Shown: in pieces, positions 13,413 through 63,314 of the stretch | Position numbering within the stretch: the first letter of the stretch is position 1 | Layout of the letters: every line of letters begins with the position of its first letter | Origin: an uncultured Bacilli bacterium | GTDB taxonomy: Bacteria; Bacillota_I; Bacilli_A; RF39; UBA660 | Length of the DNA stretch: 64,000 nucleotides | NCBI GenBank assembly: GCA_934130405.1 | Contig: CAKOXX010000002.1 | Coordinates: 28,100 to 92,099 of the forward strand | Direction: 5' to 3' | Program-made: the position numbers and the translations under genes | The notes under the pieces: generated by a model | Databases searched by the model: none | Told to the model about the DNA's origin: nothing | Seen by the model: the letters and a program-made list of their open reading frames with translations, nothing else

Positions 13413-13714
13413 TTGTTCAAGTTTATTGTATGAGATAAGACAAATTATAATGAACTAATCTTTTTGGCTCATATTATAATTAAGTAATCAAAAATAATAG
13501 GTAAATGAGCTTCTTGACAATATAGTTTTTCGGTATATTTCATTTTCTATCTTTCTCTGCATCATAAAGACTGATAGTGTTGATATAAAAGGGTCTTCTT
13601 TCATCTATTTTACTTTTCCTTTTTAAGTTTGCTTATAGTAGTATTTTTTTAGTAACATTTAATAAAATTTTAGCTTTTCCCATTATATCTTTGCCCAATA
13701 GAAAAGGATAAAAC

Positions 13715-14635
13715 CTAAAGTTTTATCGCTTTTACTTCTTTTATTGGTATACCAGTCATTCTAGTAACTTCTTCTTGACTCATTCCGTTATTAAGCATCG
13801 CACTAATTATAGAAATTCTTTCTTTTGTGCTTCCTTGCTCAAGTCCACGTTCAAGTCCACGTTCAATTCCAGCTTTAAATGATATACTTCTAATACCATT
13901 TTCAATTCTTTCTCGCTCCATGTCAGCATCGTAAAGTCCAATAGTATTAATATCAAGAGAAGCTTCTTTTATTCGTCCTACTGCTTCCATTAAGTCATTA
14001 TCTCCTTTCCCTAATTTTTCTAAATCACTAATCTTATCAACTTTCAGTATAAGTAACGCTTTTTCAAGTTTACTTAATCTAGCTCCATTATAATATTTCT
14101 TAGCTAGTTTTGGAAGACTGATATGATATTTTTTAACTTTTTCCGTTTCAATTTGTTTACTTTTTTTATCAGTATAAACAAATTCTAATGTTGAATCATT
14201 ACCTTTAAAGTAAGTAAAATTATTTAGATTAATCTGTAAAAACGAATAAAGGGTACTATAATCATTACCAGAGTTTAAACTTTCTCCTTCAATCTTTCCT
14301 AGATAAGCATCATTTCGCATGAATAACCATTCATAATATTTGCCATTCATTTCGATATTAACTAATAACTTATCAATACCAACAATAAAATCAGAGATTT
14401 TTCTTTTTTCCTTAGCATTACTCAGATTAAGTTCATTATTCTTAATCACTAATTTACGTTTAATATCTTCTTTTGATACACCCGTAAATTCACTAATTAG
14501 AAAAGAAAGATAATTAGGACAAGAAGTCATCACTATCTTAAAGACAGAGTCTTGTGTAGCTGGTATAACCTTATGTTCTCTTAAGAGTTTTTCTTTTAAT
14601 TTTAAAACTCTATCATTATCTAAGTTTACAATATT
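13715..14635 (-). CDS. Rpn-family / PD-(D/E)XK nuclease 'putative transposase' (YhgA-like)
   Basis: Acidic-basic C-terminal repeat AGIERGLERGLEQG (12-bp DNA repeat at 13847-13880) followed by a short tail, matching the family's characteristic end. The ORF-track start is 14533 (the ATG at 14531-14533). The frame stays open upstream to 14635, directly after a GGAGGTG SD (possible ATT start, or GTG at 14534-14536). Confidence 0.65.
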   Translation of the reverse strand, partial: NIVNLDNDRVLKLKEKLLREHKVIPATQDSVFKIVMTSCPNYLSFLISEFTGVSKEDIKRKLVIKNNELNLSNAKEKRKISDFIVGIDKLLVNIEMNGKYYEWLFMRNDAYLGKIEGESLNSGNDYSTLYSFLQINLNNFTYFKGNDSTLEFVYTDKKSKQIETEKVKKYHISLPKLAKKYYNGARLSKLEKALLILKVDKISDLEKLGKGDNDLMEAVGRIKEASLDINTIGLYDADMERERIENGIRSISFKAGIERGLERGLEQGSTKERISIISAMLNNGMSQEEVTRMTGIPIKEVKAIKL

Positions 14636-14691
14636 TTCTCACCTCCTTTCGGTGAGACCTAATCTAACACATATAAAAAAGAAGAGCAAAT

Positions 14692-14797
14692 ACCGAATTT
14701 TTAAAATTCACCCTTCTTTTTTGCCGAATTTGGCATTTTCAGCTATAGAATTTGCTATTTTCAGGAAAATTTAGACCTGAATTTGCAAAATTACCAC
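14692..14797. repeat. four iterated near-palindromic 15-17-bp motifs (GAATTTTTAAAATTC, GAATTTGGCATTTTCAG, GAATTTGCTATTTTCAG, GAATTTGCAAAATTAC) spaced 31/22/31 bp
   Basis: read directly; the last copy matches 16/17 with 62001-62017 upstream of the second Rpn gene. Confidence 0.7.
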
Positions 14798-14837
14798 TTT
14801 TTAAAAAAAATAATTTTTTTTATCACATAGTAAAAGA

Positions 14838-14870
14838 TGAATCGTAAAAATTCATCTTTAATAGTTTTAA
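14838..14870 (-). terminator. hairpin AAAGATGAAT..ATTCATCTTT immediately after the RNHCP gene stop
   Basis: perfect 10-bp inverted repeat with T-rich flank. Confidence 0.5.
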
Positions 14871-14871
14871 T

Positions 14872-15168
14872 CTATTTAGAAATATTAATTATTTCATCTA
14901 AACTATCATCTGTTGCCATTATGTTTTTGTGTTCTTGATTACATTTTTCACACCGATAGAGTATTTTGTAAGTATCCTTAAACTTTTCAATACCAATTGG
15001 TCTTAATAGACCTTTACACGGATTAGCTCTATCACCAGGCATAATATCTATATGAATAGAGTAAAGACAGTAAGGACAATGATCTCTTGTTGTGTATCCT
15101 AAAGGAGAAATTTCTTTTCCACAATGTATACAAGTAAAACCTTCATCTCTTTTAACAAACTGTTTCAT
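14872..15168 (-). CDS. RNHCP-domain protein (zinc-ribbon; motif variant TRDHCPYC)
   Basis: CIHCGK ... RDHCPYC ... CEKCNQ Cys pattern. The ORF track uses TTG 15204; ATG 15168 (MKQFV) is preferred because a TGtTATACT extended -10 lies inside the longer ORF. Confidence 0.55.
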   Translation of the reverse strand: MKQFVKRDEGFTCIHCGKEISPLGYTTRDHCPYCLYSIHIDIMPGDRANPCKGLLRPIGIEKFKDTYKILYRCEKCNQEHKNIMATDDSLDEIINISK

Positions 15169-15247
15169 AAAATCACCATTTAAAGTATAACAATAATTTG
15201 TCAAAAATTCTATTGTTTGTTATGATAAAAATGAAAGAGGTAAGATT

Positions 15248-17985: not shown

Positions 17986-19848
17986 ATGCGTAATAAGAAC
18001 AAATCTTTTTTATTTATAATACTTATTTTAATCCTATTAATAGCAGTAATTGGTATCAGTTATGCAGCTTTCTCCTATACAGGTACAGGTCAAAAATTGA
18101 ATACTATTACAACAGGTGCAATATCTATGGAGTATGTTGAAAGTACTAATGTCATTTCTATGAATAATGCACTTCCAACGACTGATGCTACTGGAAAGAA
18201 GTTATCAGATTCTGGAGAATACTTTGATTTTACCGTTAAATCATCAATCGCCGGAAACACTGATATCAACTATGAAATAGCAGCAAAAGAGGAAAATGGT
18301 AATACCTTTTCAGGACAAAATGTTAAATTTTATCTAACAAAAGTCAATGCCGATGGAAGTGAAGAAGAAGCAATGCCCCCAAAGACCTATTCCGAAGACC
18401 CAACCGGAAATGTCTATACTGGCAGACCATCCGATATGATGAGTCTATTTGTTGGTAATTTAAATCAACAAGGTGATACCGAAATAAAATATAGATTGAG
18501 ATTATGGGTCGATGAAAATTATAATCCACAAAGTGATAATGGTGGACTAGTATATAAAGTAAAAGTAAATGTCTATGGACAAACAAGTGATACTGTAGCG
18601 GAGGTAGAAGATACCTATTGTAAAGATAATGGATTTAATACTTTATCCGATTGTATGTTAGTAATGAATAATCATGAAGCATCAGTAGAAACAGCTAAAA
18701 CTAATATTAATGCTAAAGGTACCCCAGACTTTTCTAAAACAGCCACCACTGATGAAGGATTATTTATGGCGGAAGATGATGACGGTCCTAGTTATTATTA
18801 TAGAGGAGCAGTTAAGAATAATTATGTATCCTTTGCAGGATACACTTGGAGAATTATCCGTCAAAATGGAGATAGAAGTGTCAGAATGATATATTCTGGA
18901 AAGACAACGAGTGATACAGGTGAAGCAACAATCGGAAATTCACAGTTTGCCAATAAATCTTTGGATCCAACCTATGTTGGCTATAAATATAATGAAAAAT
19001 TTTCACTACATGAAAACAATGATATAACTAAATATACGTCATTTGTAAATACAACAAAATACAACTTTGGAACAGGATACACCTTTGATGAATCAACTAA
19101 GAAATTCACTTTAACTGGAACTATTAAGCAATTAACATGGAATGATAATCATGATGAAATAGTATCAGGAAAATTATATAGTTGTCTAAATAAAGATTGT
19201 AATATTATCTATAAAATAAATGATTATTTTGATGACAGAATAATGATAGTTCAGCCAATATCATATAGTAGTGACAGTTATGTTGATGCAGTAACAAATA
19301 ATGTGAGCTCAACTATGAAAAACACTTTAGATACATGGTATAAAAATAATTTAATAGGTTATTCATCGTACTTAACAGATGAAGTGGTTTGCAATGATCG
19401 AAGTATTTCTACCGGTACAGGATACAAAATAGACAATTATACATTTTATAGCTCATATGATAGACTTGCTAATCATAGATTACCAAGTTTAAAATGTGCT
19501 CAAGATAATGATAAATTTAAAATGTCAAATGATAGTGCTAAATTAGATTATCCAATATCACTTATCACAGCAGATGAGGTGGCAATGGCTGGCGGAGTAT
19601 CAAATATATCTAATAGTAATTATTATTTATACAACGGTCATAGTAATTGGACAATGACTCCTGGCTATTTTGATCCTTATGGAACTTATGCAAGTGTCTG
19701 GGGAGTAGGACAGAAGGGTGAGTTATATCCTTGGGGTAATACTATTTATTATTTTGAAATATGTCCAGTTATAAATCTAAAAGCAGATGTTCAAATCACA
19801 AAGGGAGATGGAACTGCTTTAAATCCATATGTTATTTCAGTTGACTAA
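17986..19848 (+). CDS. hypothetical signal-anchored secreted protein (620 aa)
   Basis: N-terminal hydrophobic segment then a Thr/Asn/Tyr-rich extracellular domain; no recognised family. Confidence 0.55.
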   Translation: MRNKNKSFLFIILILILLIAVIGISYAAFSYTGTGQKLNTITTGAISMEYVESTNVISMNNALPTTDATGKKLSDSGEYFDFTVKSSIAGNTDINYEIAAKEENGNTFSGQNVKFYLTKVNADGSEEEAMPPKTYSEDPTGNVYTGRPSDMMSLFVGNLNQQGDTEIKYRLRLWVDENYNPQSDNGGLVYKVKVNVYGQTSDTVAEVEDTYCKDNGFNTLSDCMLVMNNHEASVETAKTNINAKGTPDFSKTATTDEGLFMAEDDDGPSYYYRGAVKNNYVSFAGYTWRIIRQNGDRSVRMIYSGKTTSDTGEATIGNSQFANKSLDPTYVGYKYNEKFSLHENNDITKYTSFVNTTKYNFGTGYTFDESTKKFTLTGTIKQLTWNDNHDEIVSGKLYSCLNKDCNIIYKINDYFDDRIMIVQPISYSSDSYVDAVTNNVSSTMKNTLDTWYKNNLIGYSSYLTDEVVCNDRSISTGTGYKIDNYTFYSSYDRLANHRLPSLKCAQDNDKFKMSNDSAKLDYPISLITADEVAMAGGVSNISNSNYYLYNGHSNWTMTPGYFDPYGTYASVWGVGQKGELYPWGNTIYYFEICPVINLKADVQITKGDGTALNPYVISVD

Positions 19849-19851
19849 AAA

Positions 19852-19890
19852 TAAAAAGATAGTTGATGGTAATCATTGCTATCTTTTAAT
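19852..19890 (+). terminator. terminator-like hairpin (AAAGATAG..CTATCTTT)
   Basis: 8-bp inverted repeat after the stop. Confidence 0.4.
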
Positions 19891-19966
19891 ATGAAAAATT
19901 TATTGTTAAAGATAGCAATATCTGATATTATCATATTAGAGGGTAAGATATTAGGAGTAATTGATT

Positions 19967-21913
19967 ATGGAAAAAAATAAGAAAAAGATTAAATGGTTGA
20001 TACTAGGTTATTTACTATTATTTGTAATTTTACTATCTTTTTATTTAATAAATTCTACTGCTTTGATGGAAAATTGTTATGAAGTAATATACTTGTCATT
20101 GGTGTATGTTTTAACATTACCATTTATTGTTGGAAGGAAAGTTATTCATAAAAAAGTAATTTATCCTTTGTACTTTTTACTAGCTATTTTACTATCTTTG
20201 TTTGCTTATAAAATTACTTATTTTGGCTATTCTATTGTTACTTTATTTCTATTTGCAGTATCGGTTACTCCCATAATTTATCAAAAACTATCAAAAAATA
20301 ATTTAAAGAAAACATTTAGAGTATTAATTCCATTACTATTATTGATTATAAGTGTAGCTTATATTTTTAACGAAACAGCCATTTTCTATTCACCTTCATC
20401 TCCTGATATTTCTTTTCCTTTTTCTTTCACAAAAGAGGAAAGAGATATTTATGTTGGAAAATATAAAATAAGTGTTATTGATAATCAAAAGGAAAAGACA
20501 GAACTACGTTTAATTGTTACTGATGATATTCATAAATTTAAAACAGGAGTTACTTCTAATTATTATAACTATTATAATACTACATTGGAAGTTTATAAAA
20601 ATGATACTTTAAAACAAAAATATTATTTCATAAATACGAGTGTTCTAGCTGATAGTTTAACTCTTGAATGTCTTGGTAGTAATGATGGTAATCCGACTAG
20701 TAAATTAGATGAAGAGTTAGATGGTACTTATGTTTATCTTTCTTTTAAAGATGATGTTTATGAATTAGATACAGCTTTTATTGATGATATAACTGATAAA
20801 GTTGTTTTAAGTAAAGTAGATGAATTTGAAGATACTCCAAAGAATACTGTAACTAAAGAATTCTATTTTTATGATGATAATCATGGTCACTATGGCATTT
20901 CTTATAGTGAACCATCAGAAGATAAAACAGTACTTAGTCATTATACTTGTACTACTGATGACTGTAGTGCTAACTATGCAACTAATTATTTTTCAGTAAT
21001 TAAAGATAGTCAATATTATGTATTTAATGTTAAGACCGGGAAGATAACTAATACTTTATCAACAACAAAAAAATATGGCATTATGGATCTTGTAATGAAA
21101 GATAATTTACCAGTTGGCTTGCTCCTAGATGATATGGAAACAACAAAATTAAAGATGAGTTATTATGATTTTGCCGCTGATAAAGAAACGATTGATACTA
21201 AAATGTGTGATTATATTCGAATTGATAGCAATGTTAAAGGAAATGATTACTTGTATTGTGCACATGGTAATTATTCAAGTTTAGTAGATACTAATGGTAA
21301 TATTGTTAAAGCAGGAGTTACTGGTTCAATAGGGGATAGTAAAGATAATGTTTATTTCTATGAAAGTGATTATCCAGATGGCATACTACACCTAACTCCT
21401 ACTATTAAGAAACTTTATGATAAGGATTTTAATATAATCTATACTGCTGAAAATAATGATGAAAAACTAAAACTATATAACATAGTAACGGACAAAGATA
21501 GTATAACTTATGGAACGAATAAGAAATTTTATACTTATAAAAGCAATACCAAAACTAATGAAAGTAAAGAAGCGTATAAGGATATCTATAAAATATTTAA
21601 TGATTATGCGATTGTTAATAAAGATGACTATGTCACTATTATTGATTATAAAGAAAAAGTTGTTACTACTTTATGTAAATTAACATCAGAAAATAAAATT
21701 AAAGAAACATTTATGCTTAATGATAATAGTGCTATTGTAATAAGAATAACTGACTCTAATATAACTGTTAGTGATATAGAAGTGACAGAAGAAAATAAAG
21801 ACATTCTTAATGATAAAGAAAAGTTTGAAAAGTATAAGGAAGATCATGCTGTTTATGAATATACTTATTATATTAATGAAGCAAGATTAGAAAAGAAAGC
21901 TGACTTTATATAG
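19967..21913 (+). CDS. hypothetical polytopic membrane-anchored protein with a large extracellular domain (about 648 aa)
   Basis: ATG 19967 with AGGAG SD (track start TTG 19961); four to five N-terminal TM helices. Confidence 0.5.
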   Translation: MEKNKKKIKWLILGYLLLFVILLSFYLINSTALMENCYEVIYLSLVYVLTLPFIVGRKVIHKKVIYPLYFLLAILLSLFAYKITYFGYSIVTLFLFAVSVTPIIYQKLSKNNLKKTFRVLIPLLLLIISVAYIFNETAIFYSPSSPDISFPFSFTKEERDIYVGKYKISVIDNQKEKTELRLIVTDDIHKFKTGVTSNYYNYYNTTLEVYKNDTLKQKYYFINTSVLADSLTLECLGSNDGNPTSKLDEELDGTYVYLSFKDDVYELDTAFIDDITDKVVLSKVDEFEDTPKNTVTKEFYFYDDNHGHYGISYSEPSEDKTVLSHYTCTTDDCSANYATNYFSVIKDSQYYVFNVKTGKITNTLSTTKKYGIMDLVMKDNLPVGLLLDDMETTKLKMSYYDFAADKETIDTKMCDYIRIDSNVKGNDYLYCAHGNYSSLVDTNGNIVKAGVTGSIGDSKDNVYFYESDYPDGILHLTPTIKKLYDKDFNIIYTAENNDEKLKLYNIVTDKDSITYGTNKKFYTYKSNTKTNESKEAYKDIYKIFNDYAIVNKDDYVTIIDYKEKVVTTLCKLTSENKIKETFMLNDNSAIVIRITDSNITVSDIEVTEENKDILNDKEKFEKYKEDHAVYEYTYYINEARLEKKADFI

Positions 21914-51128: not shown

Positions 51129-51842
51129 ATGAAAGAAAAAGTATTATTAATTATTCCTGCTTATAATGAAGAGGATAACATTTTAAGAACTTGTAGAGAA
51201 ATAGACAAATATAATAAAGAAAATAAAAAGAAATATGATTATGTTGTCATAAATGATGGAAGTCGTGATAAAACAGGTGTTATTCTTGATGAAAATAATA
51301 TTAACCATATTGATTTAATTCATAATTTAGGAATAGGTGGTGCCGTACAAACTGGTTATAAATATGCCTATTATAACGATTATGATATAGCTGTTCAGTA
51401 TGATGGGGATGGTCAGCATGATGTTAATTATGTTGATAAGGTTATTAACCCTATAATTAAAAATAAAGCTGATTTTGTAATTGGAAGTCGTTTTGTTGGA
51501 GAAATTAGTAAATTTAAAACTACTGGTGCTAGACGAGCAGGCATAAAAGTTCTTTCCTTTTTTATTAGAATGGTTTCAGGCCTAAAAATTTATGATACAA
51601 CAAGTGGTTTTAGAGCTTGTAACAAAAGAATAATTAAGATTTTTGCTAATGAATATCCATTAGAATATCCTGAACCAATAACAACAGTAGAACTTGCTAA
51701 AAAGAAATTTAGAATATCAGAAGTAGCAGTTAATATGCGTGAAAGAACTGGTGGAAAGTCATCTATTCATACTTGGAAAAATGTCTATTACATGTTAAAT
51801 GTTTGTTTGTCAATTATTATTGCTGGAATTAGGAGGGATTAG
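51129..51842 (+). CDS. GtrB/CsbB-like GT2 polyprenyl-phosphate glycosyltransferase
   Basis: LLIIPAYNEEDNI ... VVINDGSRD and DGDGQHD motifs. Confidence 0.75.
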   Translation: MKEKVLLIIPAYNEEDNILRTCREIDKYNKENKKKYDYVVINDGSRDKTGVILDENNINHIDLIHNLGIGGAVQTGYKYAYYNDYDIAVQYDGDGQHDVNYVDKVINPIIKNKADFVIGSRFVGEISKFKTTGARRAGIKVLSFFIRMVSGLKIYDTTSGFRACNKRIIKIFANEYPLEYPEPITTVELAKKKFRISEVAVNMRERTGGKSSIHTWKNVYYMLNVCLSIIIAGIRRD

Positions 51843-61826: not shown

Positions 61827-61910
61827 AAAAGTTGAAATTTTAGATAATTAAGTCAAATCTATGGTTAGTTTGCTTTGTTTATGATATAAATTAATTGAAA
61901 AAAATTAAAT

Positions 61911-62020
61911 TTATACCAATTTTGCATTTTCGGTATAAAAAAATGGCCAATTTGTTAAATTCAACTACTAGAAATGCCATTTTCGGCAATTTTTATGTCT
62001 GAATTTGCAAAATTGCCTGT
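61911..62020. repeat. iterated GCATTTTCGG / GAATTTGCAAAATTGCC near-palindromic motifs upstream of the second Rpn-like gene
   Basis: 62001-62017 matches 14779-14795 at 16/17 positions. Confidence 0.65.
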
Positions 62021-62094
62021 TTGCACAATTAATATCTCCTTTGATATGATGACAGCGTCAACGTTGATTTACACCACAACTAAAGGAGGTCTTA

Positions 62095-63018
62095 ATGACA
62101 AAAGAAAAATTTATAATTCCCTTATATGATACAACTATTAAGTATTTGATTAAAAGTGAAAGAACTGGTCCAATAATTTTTAAATTAATCTATTCTTTAA
62201 CAGGAATTGACTTATCGGATTACATAATGATTGATCAAGAGTTAAATACTGGTAATAATAAAACTAAAGATTATCGTTTGGATTTTCTTTTTAAGAAAGG
62301 TAGGACTTTAGTTAATTTAGAAATTAACTATGAACTTAGCGATTGGTCAAGGAGAAAAGGTTACAATTACTTATGGCGTTTAGCAGGAAGTGGTTATGGT
62401 ACTGGTGGTAAGTATACCGAAAAGGAAGTAATTCATATTGCTATTAATAATGCTAGTTTTAAAGAAGATAAAAATGCTACTTTATTAAAATATCGCTTTA
62501 AAGAAGATGATTGTAACACAGTAATAACTGGTGTTAAAAGTTATGAGATTTATTTAAAGAACTATAGTGGTATCAAATATAATGGAAGTAATGAAATTGA
62601 AACTTTACTATCAATGTTAACAGCGACTAGTAAAGAAGAAATGAAAGAAATAGTAGGAAACTACAAGGAAGGAGAAATAATTATGAGTGAATTGGAAAAA
62701 TTAGCTTTAAATGACGAGTTTAATATTTATTATGACCATGAAGCAATCTATAAGAAAGATCTTAATGAAAAATATGATGAAGGAAGAGAGTCTGGACTTG
62801 TTGAAGGACGAAAATCTGGCTTGGCTGAAGGACGAAAATCTGGCTTGGCTGAAGGACGAAAATCTGGCTTGGCTGAAGGACGAAAATCTGGTTTAGCTGA
62901 AGGTTCTAATAAAGAAAAACTAGCAATAGCTAAGTTAATGCTTCAAGGAAAAGAATCATTAGAGAAAATAGTCAAATATACAGGTTTAAGCATTAATCAA
63001 TTGAACACGCTTTTATAA
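62095..63018 (+). CDS. Rpn-family / PD-(D/E)XK nuclease 'putative transposase' (YhgA-like) with octapeptide EGRKSGLA x5
   Basis: AAAGGAGGT SD; overall architecture like 13715-14635; C-terminal charged repeat then a conserved about 35-aa tail. Confidence 0.7.
   Translation: MTKEKFIIPLYDTTIKYLIKSERTGPIIFKLIYSLTGIDLSDYIMIDQELNTGNNKTKDYRLDFLFKKGRTLVNLEINYELSDWSRRKGYNYLWRLAGSGYGTGGKYTEKEVIHIAINNASFKEDKNATLLKYRFKEDDCNTVITGVKSYEIYLKNYSGIKYNGSNEIETLLSMLTATSKEEMKEIVGNYKEGEIIMSELEKLALNDEFNIYYDHEAIYKKDLNEKYDEGRESGLVEGRKSGLAEGRKSGLAEGRKSGLAEGRKSGLAEGSNKEKLAIAKLMLQGKESLEKIVKYTGLSINQLNTLL
62779..62898 (+). repeat. 24-bp coding tandem repeat, 5 units (three identical GAAGGACGAAAATCTGGCTTGGCT)
   Basis: read directly; produces the alternative-frame ORF 62711-62896 as an artefact. 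Confidence 0.85.
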
Positions 63019-63059: not shown

Positions 63060-63314
63060 GTGGATGAATTAAATATAAATGATGAGTTTAATATTTATTA
63101 TGATCATGAAGCAATCTATAAGAAAGATCTTAATGAAAAATATGATGAAGGAAGAGAGTCTGGACTTGCCGAAGGACGAAAATCTGGTTTAGCTGAAGGT
63201 TCTAATAAAGAAAAACTAGCAATAGCTAAGTTAATGCTTCAAGGAAAAGAATCATTAGACAAAATAGTCAAATATACGGGTTTAAGTATAAATCAGTTGA
63301 ATACACTTTTGTAA
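63060..63314 (+). pseudogene. duplicated 3' fragment of the Rpn-like gene (84 codons, only 2 repeat units) with its own SD and GTG start
   Basis: NDEFNIYYDHEAIYKKDLNEKYDEGRESGL and the tail are near-identical to residues about 205-307 of 62095-63018. Confidence 0.6.

Follow-up and report, generated by a model that had tools for sequence, protein, structure and literature searches.

A four-box array coupled to the promoters of Rpn-family nuclease genes in a clade of uncultured gut Bacilli, and its probable role as an operator

Introduction

The locus described here raises the question of why two distantly related nuclease genes on one contig should have the same set of near-palindromic boxes in front of their promoters, and what these boxes do. 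The genes, here called gene1 and gene2, lie in a 64,000-nucleotide stretch of DNA (the window; G+C content of about 26%) from an uncultured Bacilli bacterium, whose nearest genome records are metagenome-assembled genomes (MAGs) from human and animal gut, such as 'uncultured Bacilli bacterium' CAKPDM01 and Clostridium sp. CAG:451. Both encode proteins with the layout of Rpn proteins, which are widespread toxic nucleases recently shown to act as toxin-antitoxin antiphage systems, and for which the control of expression and the release of the toxin are open questions (PMC10400941). The RpnL/RpnS/RpnSs systems have been described by Kingston et al. (2017, PMC5350276) and Zhong et al. (2023, PMC10400941), and in the latter study Rpn expression appeared to be additionally regulated. 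In the analysis presented here, it is very probable, from conservation and position, that a protein binds the array of boxes and controls the adjacent promoter.

Two matching arrays in the window

The two genes are located as follows.

13715-14632, minus strand: gene1, an Rpn-family PD-(D/E)XK nuclease, above the cut-offs of TIGR01784 and PF12784
62095-63018, plus strand: gene2, a divergent Rpn-like protein with an RpnS-like C-terminus and five GLxEGRKS repeats

The gene1 product scores 69.3 bits against TIGR01784 (cut-off 52.1), a model named 'Rpn family recombination-promoting nuclease/putative transposase', and 35.1 bits against PF12784 (cut-off 27.4), which identifies a PD-(D/E)XK nuclease domain. 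The gene2 product reaches 41.7 bits against TIGR01784, under the 52.1 cut-off, and taken alone falls outside the family model; the two proteins share 24% identity (BLASTP E 4e-15).

Each gene is preceded by four boxes, named a to d in the direction of the gene, with scores from the weight matrix described below.

14777-14795 (core 14779-14793), minus strand: array 1 box a, distal, GGTAATTTTGCAAATTCAG in gene orientation, matrix score 15.5
14746-14764, minus strand: array 1 box b, CTGAAAATAGCAAATTCTA, matrix score 13.0
14724-14742, minus strand: array 1 box c, CTGAAAATGCCAAATTCGG, matrix score 16.1
14693-14711, minus strand: array 1 box d, promoter-proximal, GTGAATTTTAAAAATTCGG, matrix score 18.8
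61915-61933, plus strand: array 2 box a, ACCAATTTTGCATTTTCGG, matrix score 10.5
61946-61964, plus strand: array 2 box b, GCCAATTTGTTAAATTCAA, matrix score 17.9
61968-61986, plus strand: array 2 box c, CTAGAAATGCCATTTTCGG, the weakest box, under the top-30 list of the matrix
61999-62017, plus strand: array 2 box d, promoter-proximal, CTGAATTTGCAAAATTGCC, matrix score 20.2, the best match in the window

An earlier, sequence-only reading of the window had drawn attention to four copies of the motif between the terminator hairpin of an RNHCP gene (14833-14859) and the minus-strand Rpn-like gene, and both the location and the GAATTT starts at 14695, 14726, 14748 and 14779, with their spacing of 31/22/31, are confirmed. 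It had also reported that the last copy recurs before the second Rpn-like gene, and indeed the window has just two exact copies of the 15-mer TGAATTTGCAAAATT, one at 14778 and one at 62000, the latter 95 bp upstream of the gene2 ATG (62095). At this second locus, where it saw further half-sites, array 2 is complete, with boxes at 61915, 61946, 61968 and 61999 in the same 31/22/31 spacing, and it aligns with array 1 without a gap (61 identities over 103 positions at the true register, against 13-44 at other offsets). When the 111 nt of array 1 were compared with every ungapped position of the window on both strands (background mean of 32.7 identities in 111, standard deviation 4.8), array 2 was the best non-self match, with 66/111 identities forward and 64 in reverse, and this near equality indicates that the whole array is dyad-symmetric about the gap between boxes b and c.

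Every box is built on a dyad of 15 bp, GAATTT-N3-AAATTC, with G/C-rich flanks. Read in the direction of the gene, the four 19-nt boxes stand 12, 3 and 12 nt apart and are followed, after a further 3 nt, by the sequence TTGCnn, which in both loci can be read as part of a promoter.

14661-14689, minus strand: gene1 promoter (inferred), at the same position and of the same form in aligned loci
62021-62050, plus strand: gene2 promoter, TTGCAC/TGCACA, 17-18 nt spacer, TGA and TATGAT
14637-14657, minus strand: gene1 5' leader hairpin of 7 bp, TCTCACC-GAAAGGA-GGTGAGA, enclosing the Shine-Dalgarno sequence, -11.1 kcal/mol, z = -2.9

The gene1 promoter would consist of a -35 element TTGCTC (14689-14684), a 17-nt spacer, and TGT with TAGATT as an extended -10 (14669-14661). 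It has 8 of 12 consensus matches and was missed by a strict promoter consensus scan (at least 9 of 12), so its assignment rests on comparative conservation. The gene2 promoter was matched as TGCACA-17-TATGAT with TG. The conserved form is of the sigma-A type, TTGCnn-17 nt-TGn-extended -10, with the array upstream; the core of box d ends 5 nt (plus or minus 1, by eye from aligned rows) before the conserved TTGCnn, and the four 15-bp dyads adjoin the core promoter without overlapping it.

Exclusivity of the array

Loose IUPAC patterns, for example GAATTTNNNAWWWTTC with one mismatch, show no enrichment in the window, and since their counts are uninformative they were replaced by a weight matrix trained on independent loci. 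The training set of 101 boxes came solely from distant loci and left out both the window and its orthologues. The information of the matrix peaks at G, AA and T and at the mirrored A, TT and C/G. When all positions of the window are ranked by it, the top nine fall in the two arrays. Over 304 kb of flanks it gives 99 strong matches within arrays and two outside, one of which is box a of a decayed second unit. A pair of weak matches 31 bp apart in the window, at 51467 and 51498, falls within a GT2 glycosyltransferase gene and appears to be due to chance.

An array score, the sum of four matrix matches in the observed geometry, was then computed over the window and the fetched loci (760 kb; single loci are denoted below by L and a number). 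It finds 60 arrays, exactly one per locus and two in the window, with scores of 47-77 against a maximum of 13 in a Markov null of 700 kb. The possibility that the motif is scattered at background frequency without a link to Rpn genes, which the sequence-only reading had itself put forward as a test, did not hold up: 58 of the 60 arrays precede Rpn-family genes, and the other two precede a gene for a UvrD-like helicase. The exact 15-mer occurs seven times in the first 64 loci, always within arrays. Over the whole metagenome collection, the exact 19-mer CTGAATTTGCAAAATTRCC has 52 matches, 10 of which lie in four-box arrays; the other 42 are solitary, on unrelated and mostly higher-GC contigs with no further boxes nearby, and are regarded as chance. 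Together, the array-bound and the solitary chance matches argue that the motif is not scattered at background frequency. The element is distinct from the AT-rich background both in its specific 21-nt matrix and in its four-box geometry.

A site for CodY or another global regulator was considered and rejected. The CodY consensus is AATTTTCWGAAAATT and CodY sites are spread over many operons, whereas the boxes have their conserved G/C at +/-7 and not at +/-1, and there are no sites outside arrays in the 760 kb. A CodY-box-like palindrome with one extra central base, ATTTTCAGGAAAATT, is seen at the a-b junction of array 1 (14759-14774); it is found in the gene1 subgroup only and is probably a by-product of adjacent half-sites.

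Conservation across related loci

An alignment of gene1 homologues retrieved 52 loci from one-genome-per-species collections, all of them from MAGs of gut Bacilli or 'Tenericutes', often with three to five copies per genome. The four boxes and the promoter recur at nearly all gene1-type loci, over a range of protein identity from 96% to about 35%, and also at gene2-type homologues of 61%, 42% and 40% identity. Among 37 distinct arrays, the a-b spacing is 31-33 bp, b-c 20-23 bp (mode 22), c-d 31-32 bp and a-d 84-86 bp, so that successive box centres, about 31.5, 21.5 and 31.5 bp apart, are separated by 3, 2 and 3 turns of the helix. Only a single clade of uncultured gut Bacilli has the array, which is no general feature of Rpn genes. 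In the regions upstream of L009 and L020, box d is kept and boxes a to c have decayed.

It is the combination of conservation, exclusivity and geometry that strongly supports the earlier suggestion of a common DNA-binding factor. The four boxes can be understood as a promoter-coupled operator array, in which each dyad would fit one dimer of a DNA-binding protein, and half-sites about one helical turn apart would suit a dimer of a helix-turn-helix (HTH) protein. The spacing of 3, 2 and 3 turns would put four dimers on one face of the DNA, an arrangement suited to cooperative assembly, and the proximal box occupies the DNA that RNA polymerase would contact with its alpha subunits and sigma region 4, so that a bound protein could either occlude or recruit these contacts.

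A different explanation for the same position requires no dedicated protein: the phased T-tract/A-tract boxes would provide UP-element-like contacts for the alpha subunits and intrinsically curved DNA that boosts a weak -35. Box d, at roughly -55 to -40, does resemble UP elements, which have a TTTT..AAAA pattern, and the whole-helical-turn spacing of all boxes would fit as well. However, in DNA of 26% GC, conservation is highest at positions that include the outer G and C as well as the G/C-rich flanks, boxes a to c are placed around -80 to -130, past the normal reach of the alpha C-terminal domain, and curvature needs no dyad symmetry in each box, all of which makes this explanation decidedly improbable.

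In the subgroup L021-L051, the stretch about 190-300 nt upstream of the gene (e.g. L036:2700-2800) shows that the unit begins further upstream, with a conserved terminator-like hairpin (GCAAC..GTTGC followed by a T run), a strong extra promoter (TTGACA-17-TGnTACATT) with a purine-rich leader, GATGGGGAAAGGAGG, and a variable mini-open reading frame (ORF) of 4-10 codons in this leader that ends at box a.

The array of this subgroup could be transcribed from the extra promoter, and it stands upstream of a putative toxin gene, both of which would suit an action of the repeats as RNA, either as leader hairpins or as a ToxI-like repeat antitoxin RNA. In contrast, half-sites form Watson-Crick pairs no more often than shuffled sequences do, and a full stem is possible in just 14 of 122 boxes; half-sites that match the consensus without covariation place the symmetry at the level of DNA and not of RNA. 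The 31/22/31 spacing is moreover not a constant period, a conserved promoter lies downstream of the array, and the gene1 subgroup is without a conserved upstream promoter. There is no Rfam match to the array, and a scan of the whole window returned one tRNA only. Action as RNA is extremely improbable and is largely refuted.

The possible effect on transcription and the candidate binder

If the array is an operator, the most economical binder would be the HTH-like C-terminal domain shared by long Rpn proteins and short RpnS/RpnSs forms, which would act in cis and also in trans on all paralogues, in the manner of type II toxin-antitoxin autoregulation. Cooperative binding would then hold transcription of a toxic Rpn nuclease low, beside weak start codons and a leader hairpin. 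Tentatively, we favour this identity of the binder together with repression as its effect, although the joint claim falls somewhat short of an even chance. Repression is favoured because of the presumably toxic nuclease product, the weak start codons and the hairpin around the gene1 Shine-Dalgarno sequence. The start of gene1 is probably an ATT at 14632-14630, directly after AGGAGG, and is placed there because homologues reach N-terminal of the first GTG (14533). Close relatives also appear to start at ATT (ATA in L005), and other family members at TTG, GTG or CTG; translation of these Rpn genes seems to be deliberately weak.

Both window genes encode a nuclease domain, a helix with variable four-residue repeats, and a C-terminal domain, as in Rpn proteins, and homologues vary in the number of G-x-E-x repeats. 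According to Zhong et al. (2023, PMC10400941), RpnS is an antitoxin of three helices that forms dimers, and HHpred finds it similar to HTH motifs. The sequence-only reading had proposed an HTH-like tail, which is weakly supported: a profile of the C-terminal domain matches the RpnA_S crystal chain 7TH0 at E 0.22, the RpnA model NF007361 matches the C-terminal 37 residues (E 0.0026-0.022), and AlphaFold predicts a long helix followed by a helix-turn-helix (pLDDT 81-89). Weak fold matches are nearly all to HTH DNA binders (TrpR, resolvase, IstA, Fis), as are nearly all of the sub-threshold Pfam matches (Trp_repressor, Sigma70_r4, CENP-B_N). The mean pLDDT of the full-length model is 66.6.

A candidate short antitoxin form is also present downstream of gene2.

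63060-63314, plus strand: stand-alone 84-aa copy of the gene2 C-terminal domain (RpnSs-like)

This gene is probably co-transcribed with gene2, as the gap after gene2 is 42 nt. Compared with the gene2 C-terminus, its product is without exactly 24 residues, equal to six four-residue repeats, so that the two differ in repeat number.

Further traces of such short forms are seen near gene1 and within both genes. A remnant of a second C-terminal-domain gene, DINTISLYDAEKDRK followed by a stop, is found 3' of gene1 (13543-13584, minus strand), at a place where the paralogous units L002, L003 and L004 have an intact C-terminal-domain gene. In gene2, an internal AAGGAG-type ribosome-binding sequence precedes an in-frame ATG (62683; Met197) at 62666-62685 on the plus strand, and gene1 has a similar AAGGAG-type sequence and in-frame ATG at 13990-14015 on the minus strand (Met213, which is family-invariant and lies in a KGDxDLME motif). 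Judged by these signals, Met197 and Met213 are candidate internal starts for RpnS-type short proteins.

Several points weigh against the Rpn domain as a repressing binder. Fold searches with the full-length and C-terminal models returned nothing significant, with HTH similarity at E of at least 0.4, and no DNA binding is known for E. coli RpnS. The two genes differ in the putative recognition helix (IPIKEVKAI in gene1, LSINQLNTL in gene2) while the box is the same; group-specific box variants that track this helix were looked for, and inspection of the boxes showed no clear shift in specificity. As all boxes lie upstream of the -35 element, the geometry would suit activation just as well as repression. 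Three MAG homologues of 28-38% identity (L041, L047 and L052) and a Leptospira plasmid Rpn gene have no array; its distribution therefore follows the host lineage no less closely than the protein. Lastly, in L101 (1665-1880), one of the ten arrays found with the 19-mer, and in the related locus L117 (2301-2500), the full array stands before the gene of a 510-aa UvrD-like SF1 helicase, with no Rpn gene in cis.

The L101 gene, on the minus strand, had first been taken for a divergent Rpn gene before it proved to encode the helicase. In both loci the module comprises an array with 32/21/31 spacing, a TTGCAT-17-TATAAT promoter and a leader resembling those of Rpn genes, and the helicase gene is divergent from a ZIP transporter gene. 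The helicase orthologue in L118 (71% identity, same gene order) has a 97-nt intergenic region without an array, and the orthologues in L119 and L120 (53% identity) also have none. With the array at this helicase and not at its more distant orthologues, array, promoter and leader make up a portable module that can be grafted onto another gene, and any factor that binds the boxes has to be capable of acting in trans.

Such observations would also fit a separate, lineage-specific host regulator that is encoded elsewhere in the genome and controls all Rpn-type toxin genes and occasionally other DNA-metabolism genes, with phage infection or DNA damage as examples of possible signals. This would account for one box serving subfamilies of 24% identity with different putative recognition helices, for equally distant homologues in other MAGs and in Leptospira without the array, and for a complete array driving the helicase of L101 and L117. 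Against it, no array precedes any regulator gene in the 760 kb, the regulon would be almost wholly Rpn, and no transcription-factor gene travels with the unit. We also know of no Firmicute regulator whose motif fits, the half-sites of CodY, ARG, Fur/Zur, Rex and Cheo boxes being spaced differently. A host regulator is on balance somewhat unlikely, but nearly as likely as the Rpn domain because of the differing recognition helix, the host-lineage distribution and the helicase capture.

Duplication of the unit and the question of mobility

The array is duplicated together with its gene.

13633-14819, minus strand: unit repeated at three sites of one related genome, from blastn of the window against L001-L003

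The repeated gene1-type unit, consisting of array, promoter, gene and about 80 nt, is 1.2 kb long with 90-94% DNA identity, and its upstream edge is sharp, some 25 nt before box a. In general, the duplicated content is limited to array, promoter, gene and sometimes the small C-terminal gene, and the upstream boundary varies by subgroup, at about 190 nt or about 290 nt from the start codon.

The sequence-only reading had raised the possibility of recognition or terminal sequences of a mobile element. In such a case the array would be a recombination or mobility site, one-ended and without inverted repeats, at which the Rpn nuclease or a host recombinase duplicates, converts or moves the 5' module or the whole unit. 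The three units in one genome with their sharp boundary can be cited in favour, as can the transplantation of array, promoter and leader to the helicase gene, a clean deletion between boxes a and d that leaves one hybrid box (L033:1800-1925), and a fusion of box a to a mid-gene remnant (L021:3925-4080). Metagenome contigs of the window's species also often break at the start of the array: the exact GtrA protein that flanks gene2 locates eight places, in four of which the contig ends 94-141 nt past the GtrA stop, at the array start (equivalent to about 61889-61936 in the window), and two more break inside gene2 or the small ORF (L055-L060 for these places). However, such breaks are as expected for a repeated or strain-variable unit, and both deletions between repeats and assembly breaks would be expected for any repeated sequence. 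Each unit has a single 5' array in place of inverted arrays at both ends with precise termini; the 3' ends carry no strong matrix match and no mirrored copy in any unit, no inverted terminal repeats were found, and the upstream boundary shifts between subgroups. No empty site for gene2 was found, all eight GtrA places carrying gene2 or breaking at it, and no terminal repeats or defined ends have been reported for rpn genes (Zhong et al., 2023, PMC10400941). The strict register with the -35 element argues for a role in transcription, and terminal or recognition sequences of a mobile element are accordingly disfavoured, a mobility site being an unlikely explanation.

A dual role may also be envisaged, in which the Rpn nuclease, docked on the four boxes through its C-terminal domain, throttles its own synthesis and also promotes an exchange, independent of RecA, by which further genes and paralogues receive copies of the 5' module, itself then a one-ended mobile regulatory element without inverted repeats. 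The capture by the helicase gene, the a-d deletion, the sharp boundary upstream and a near-identical 19-mer across the arrays of proteins of 24% identity could all be accounted for in this way, although we consider such a role a long shot.

In one strain (L054:5734-6873), a gene of the IS605 OrfB/TnpB type stands in the place of the small C-terminal-domain gene between gene2 and gatC.

Gene neighbourhood

The remaining features around array 1 are the following.

14872-15204, minus strand: RNHCP gene (PF12647)
14833-14859: terminator hairpin of the RNHCP gene

Two large ORFs of 620 and 650 aa, without a Pfam match, are located at 17986-21913 on the plus strand. Rpn units in other MAGs often adjoin large secreted proteins of about 620-640 aa (L036:724-2586; L062:2352-3267), and the large protein near the L062 unit has a weak match to DUF6273. 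The PADLOC models gave no match for gene1 or gene2, and no relatives were found on viral contigs.

Comparison with known systems

The searchable literature yielded no report of an operator or repeat array in front of Rpn/PDDEXK_2 genes. As a probable cis element in the control of Rpn genes, the array is conserved, precisely defined and well suited to experiment. If an RpnS-type domain does bind it, an 'antitoxin within a toxin' would double as a transcription factor, and Rpn systems would join the autoregulation logic of classical type II toxin-antitoxin systems; if a host factor binds instead, this would be a dedicated regulator of defence nucleases in a poorly known human-gut Bacilli clade.

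The genes themselves resemble described Rpn systems in the N-terminal PD-(D/E)XK nuclease, the putative C-terminal three-helix domain with its weak alignment to RpnA_S, the variable four-residue repeats, the stand-alone downstream C-terminal copy (compare the RpnSs genes of E. coli), and the presence of multiple gene copies without inverted repeats. They differ in the probable upstream operator array, in its restriction to one gut Bacilli clade, and in that gene2 is under the family cut-off.

The TnsB sites of Tn7 and the att sites of Mu likewise come as several copies of about 20 bp that together span about 100 bp on the border of a multi-copy unit. These occur at both ends in inverted orientation, with precise termini and target duplications, whereas an array of the window type is found at one end, is locked to the promoter and has variable unit boundaries. 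Type III ToxI-like systems are set apart by the irregular period of the boxes, their place upstream of the promoter and the lack of covariation.

Among single-site motifs, the boxes are like those of Fis in having a 15-bp core with outer G and C and an A/T-rich interior: Fis sites have a 15-bp core with G at -7, C at +7 and an AT-rich centre, and are degenerate and genome-wide. The predicted Rpn C-terminal domain is likewise similar to Fis in having a long helix followed by a C-terminal HTH (in Fis, this helix serves dimerisation), but there is no detectable homology (Foldseek E about 4-5) and the window boxes are restricted to arrays; to our knowledge, Firmicutes are without Fis.

NrdR and ARG boxes are palindromic, AT-rich and phased by helical turns near the promoter, where they are bound by oligomeric repressors of metabolic regulons. 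Tandem NrdR or ARG boxes are matched in the centre-to-centre spacing of 21-22 or 31-32 bp and in adjoining the promoter, but the ARG box (TGAAT-N4-ATTCA) differs in sequence and half-site spacing from the window boxes (GAA-N9-TTC).

In hipBA, four palindromic operators are bound cooperatively by a dimer of HipB, an HTH protein that is itself the antitoxin, and the window arrays are similar in having four putative dyad operators over about 100 bp at the promoter of a putative toxin gene. The hipBA operators overlap the -35/-10 elements, as opposed to the window boxes, which are all upstream of the -35; and whereas HipB is an antitoxin, here the putative antitoxin domain is also part of the toxin polypeptide and the binder is putative. 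The element probably belongs to a familiar class, that of the multi-operator promoter array, found here on the Rpn family.

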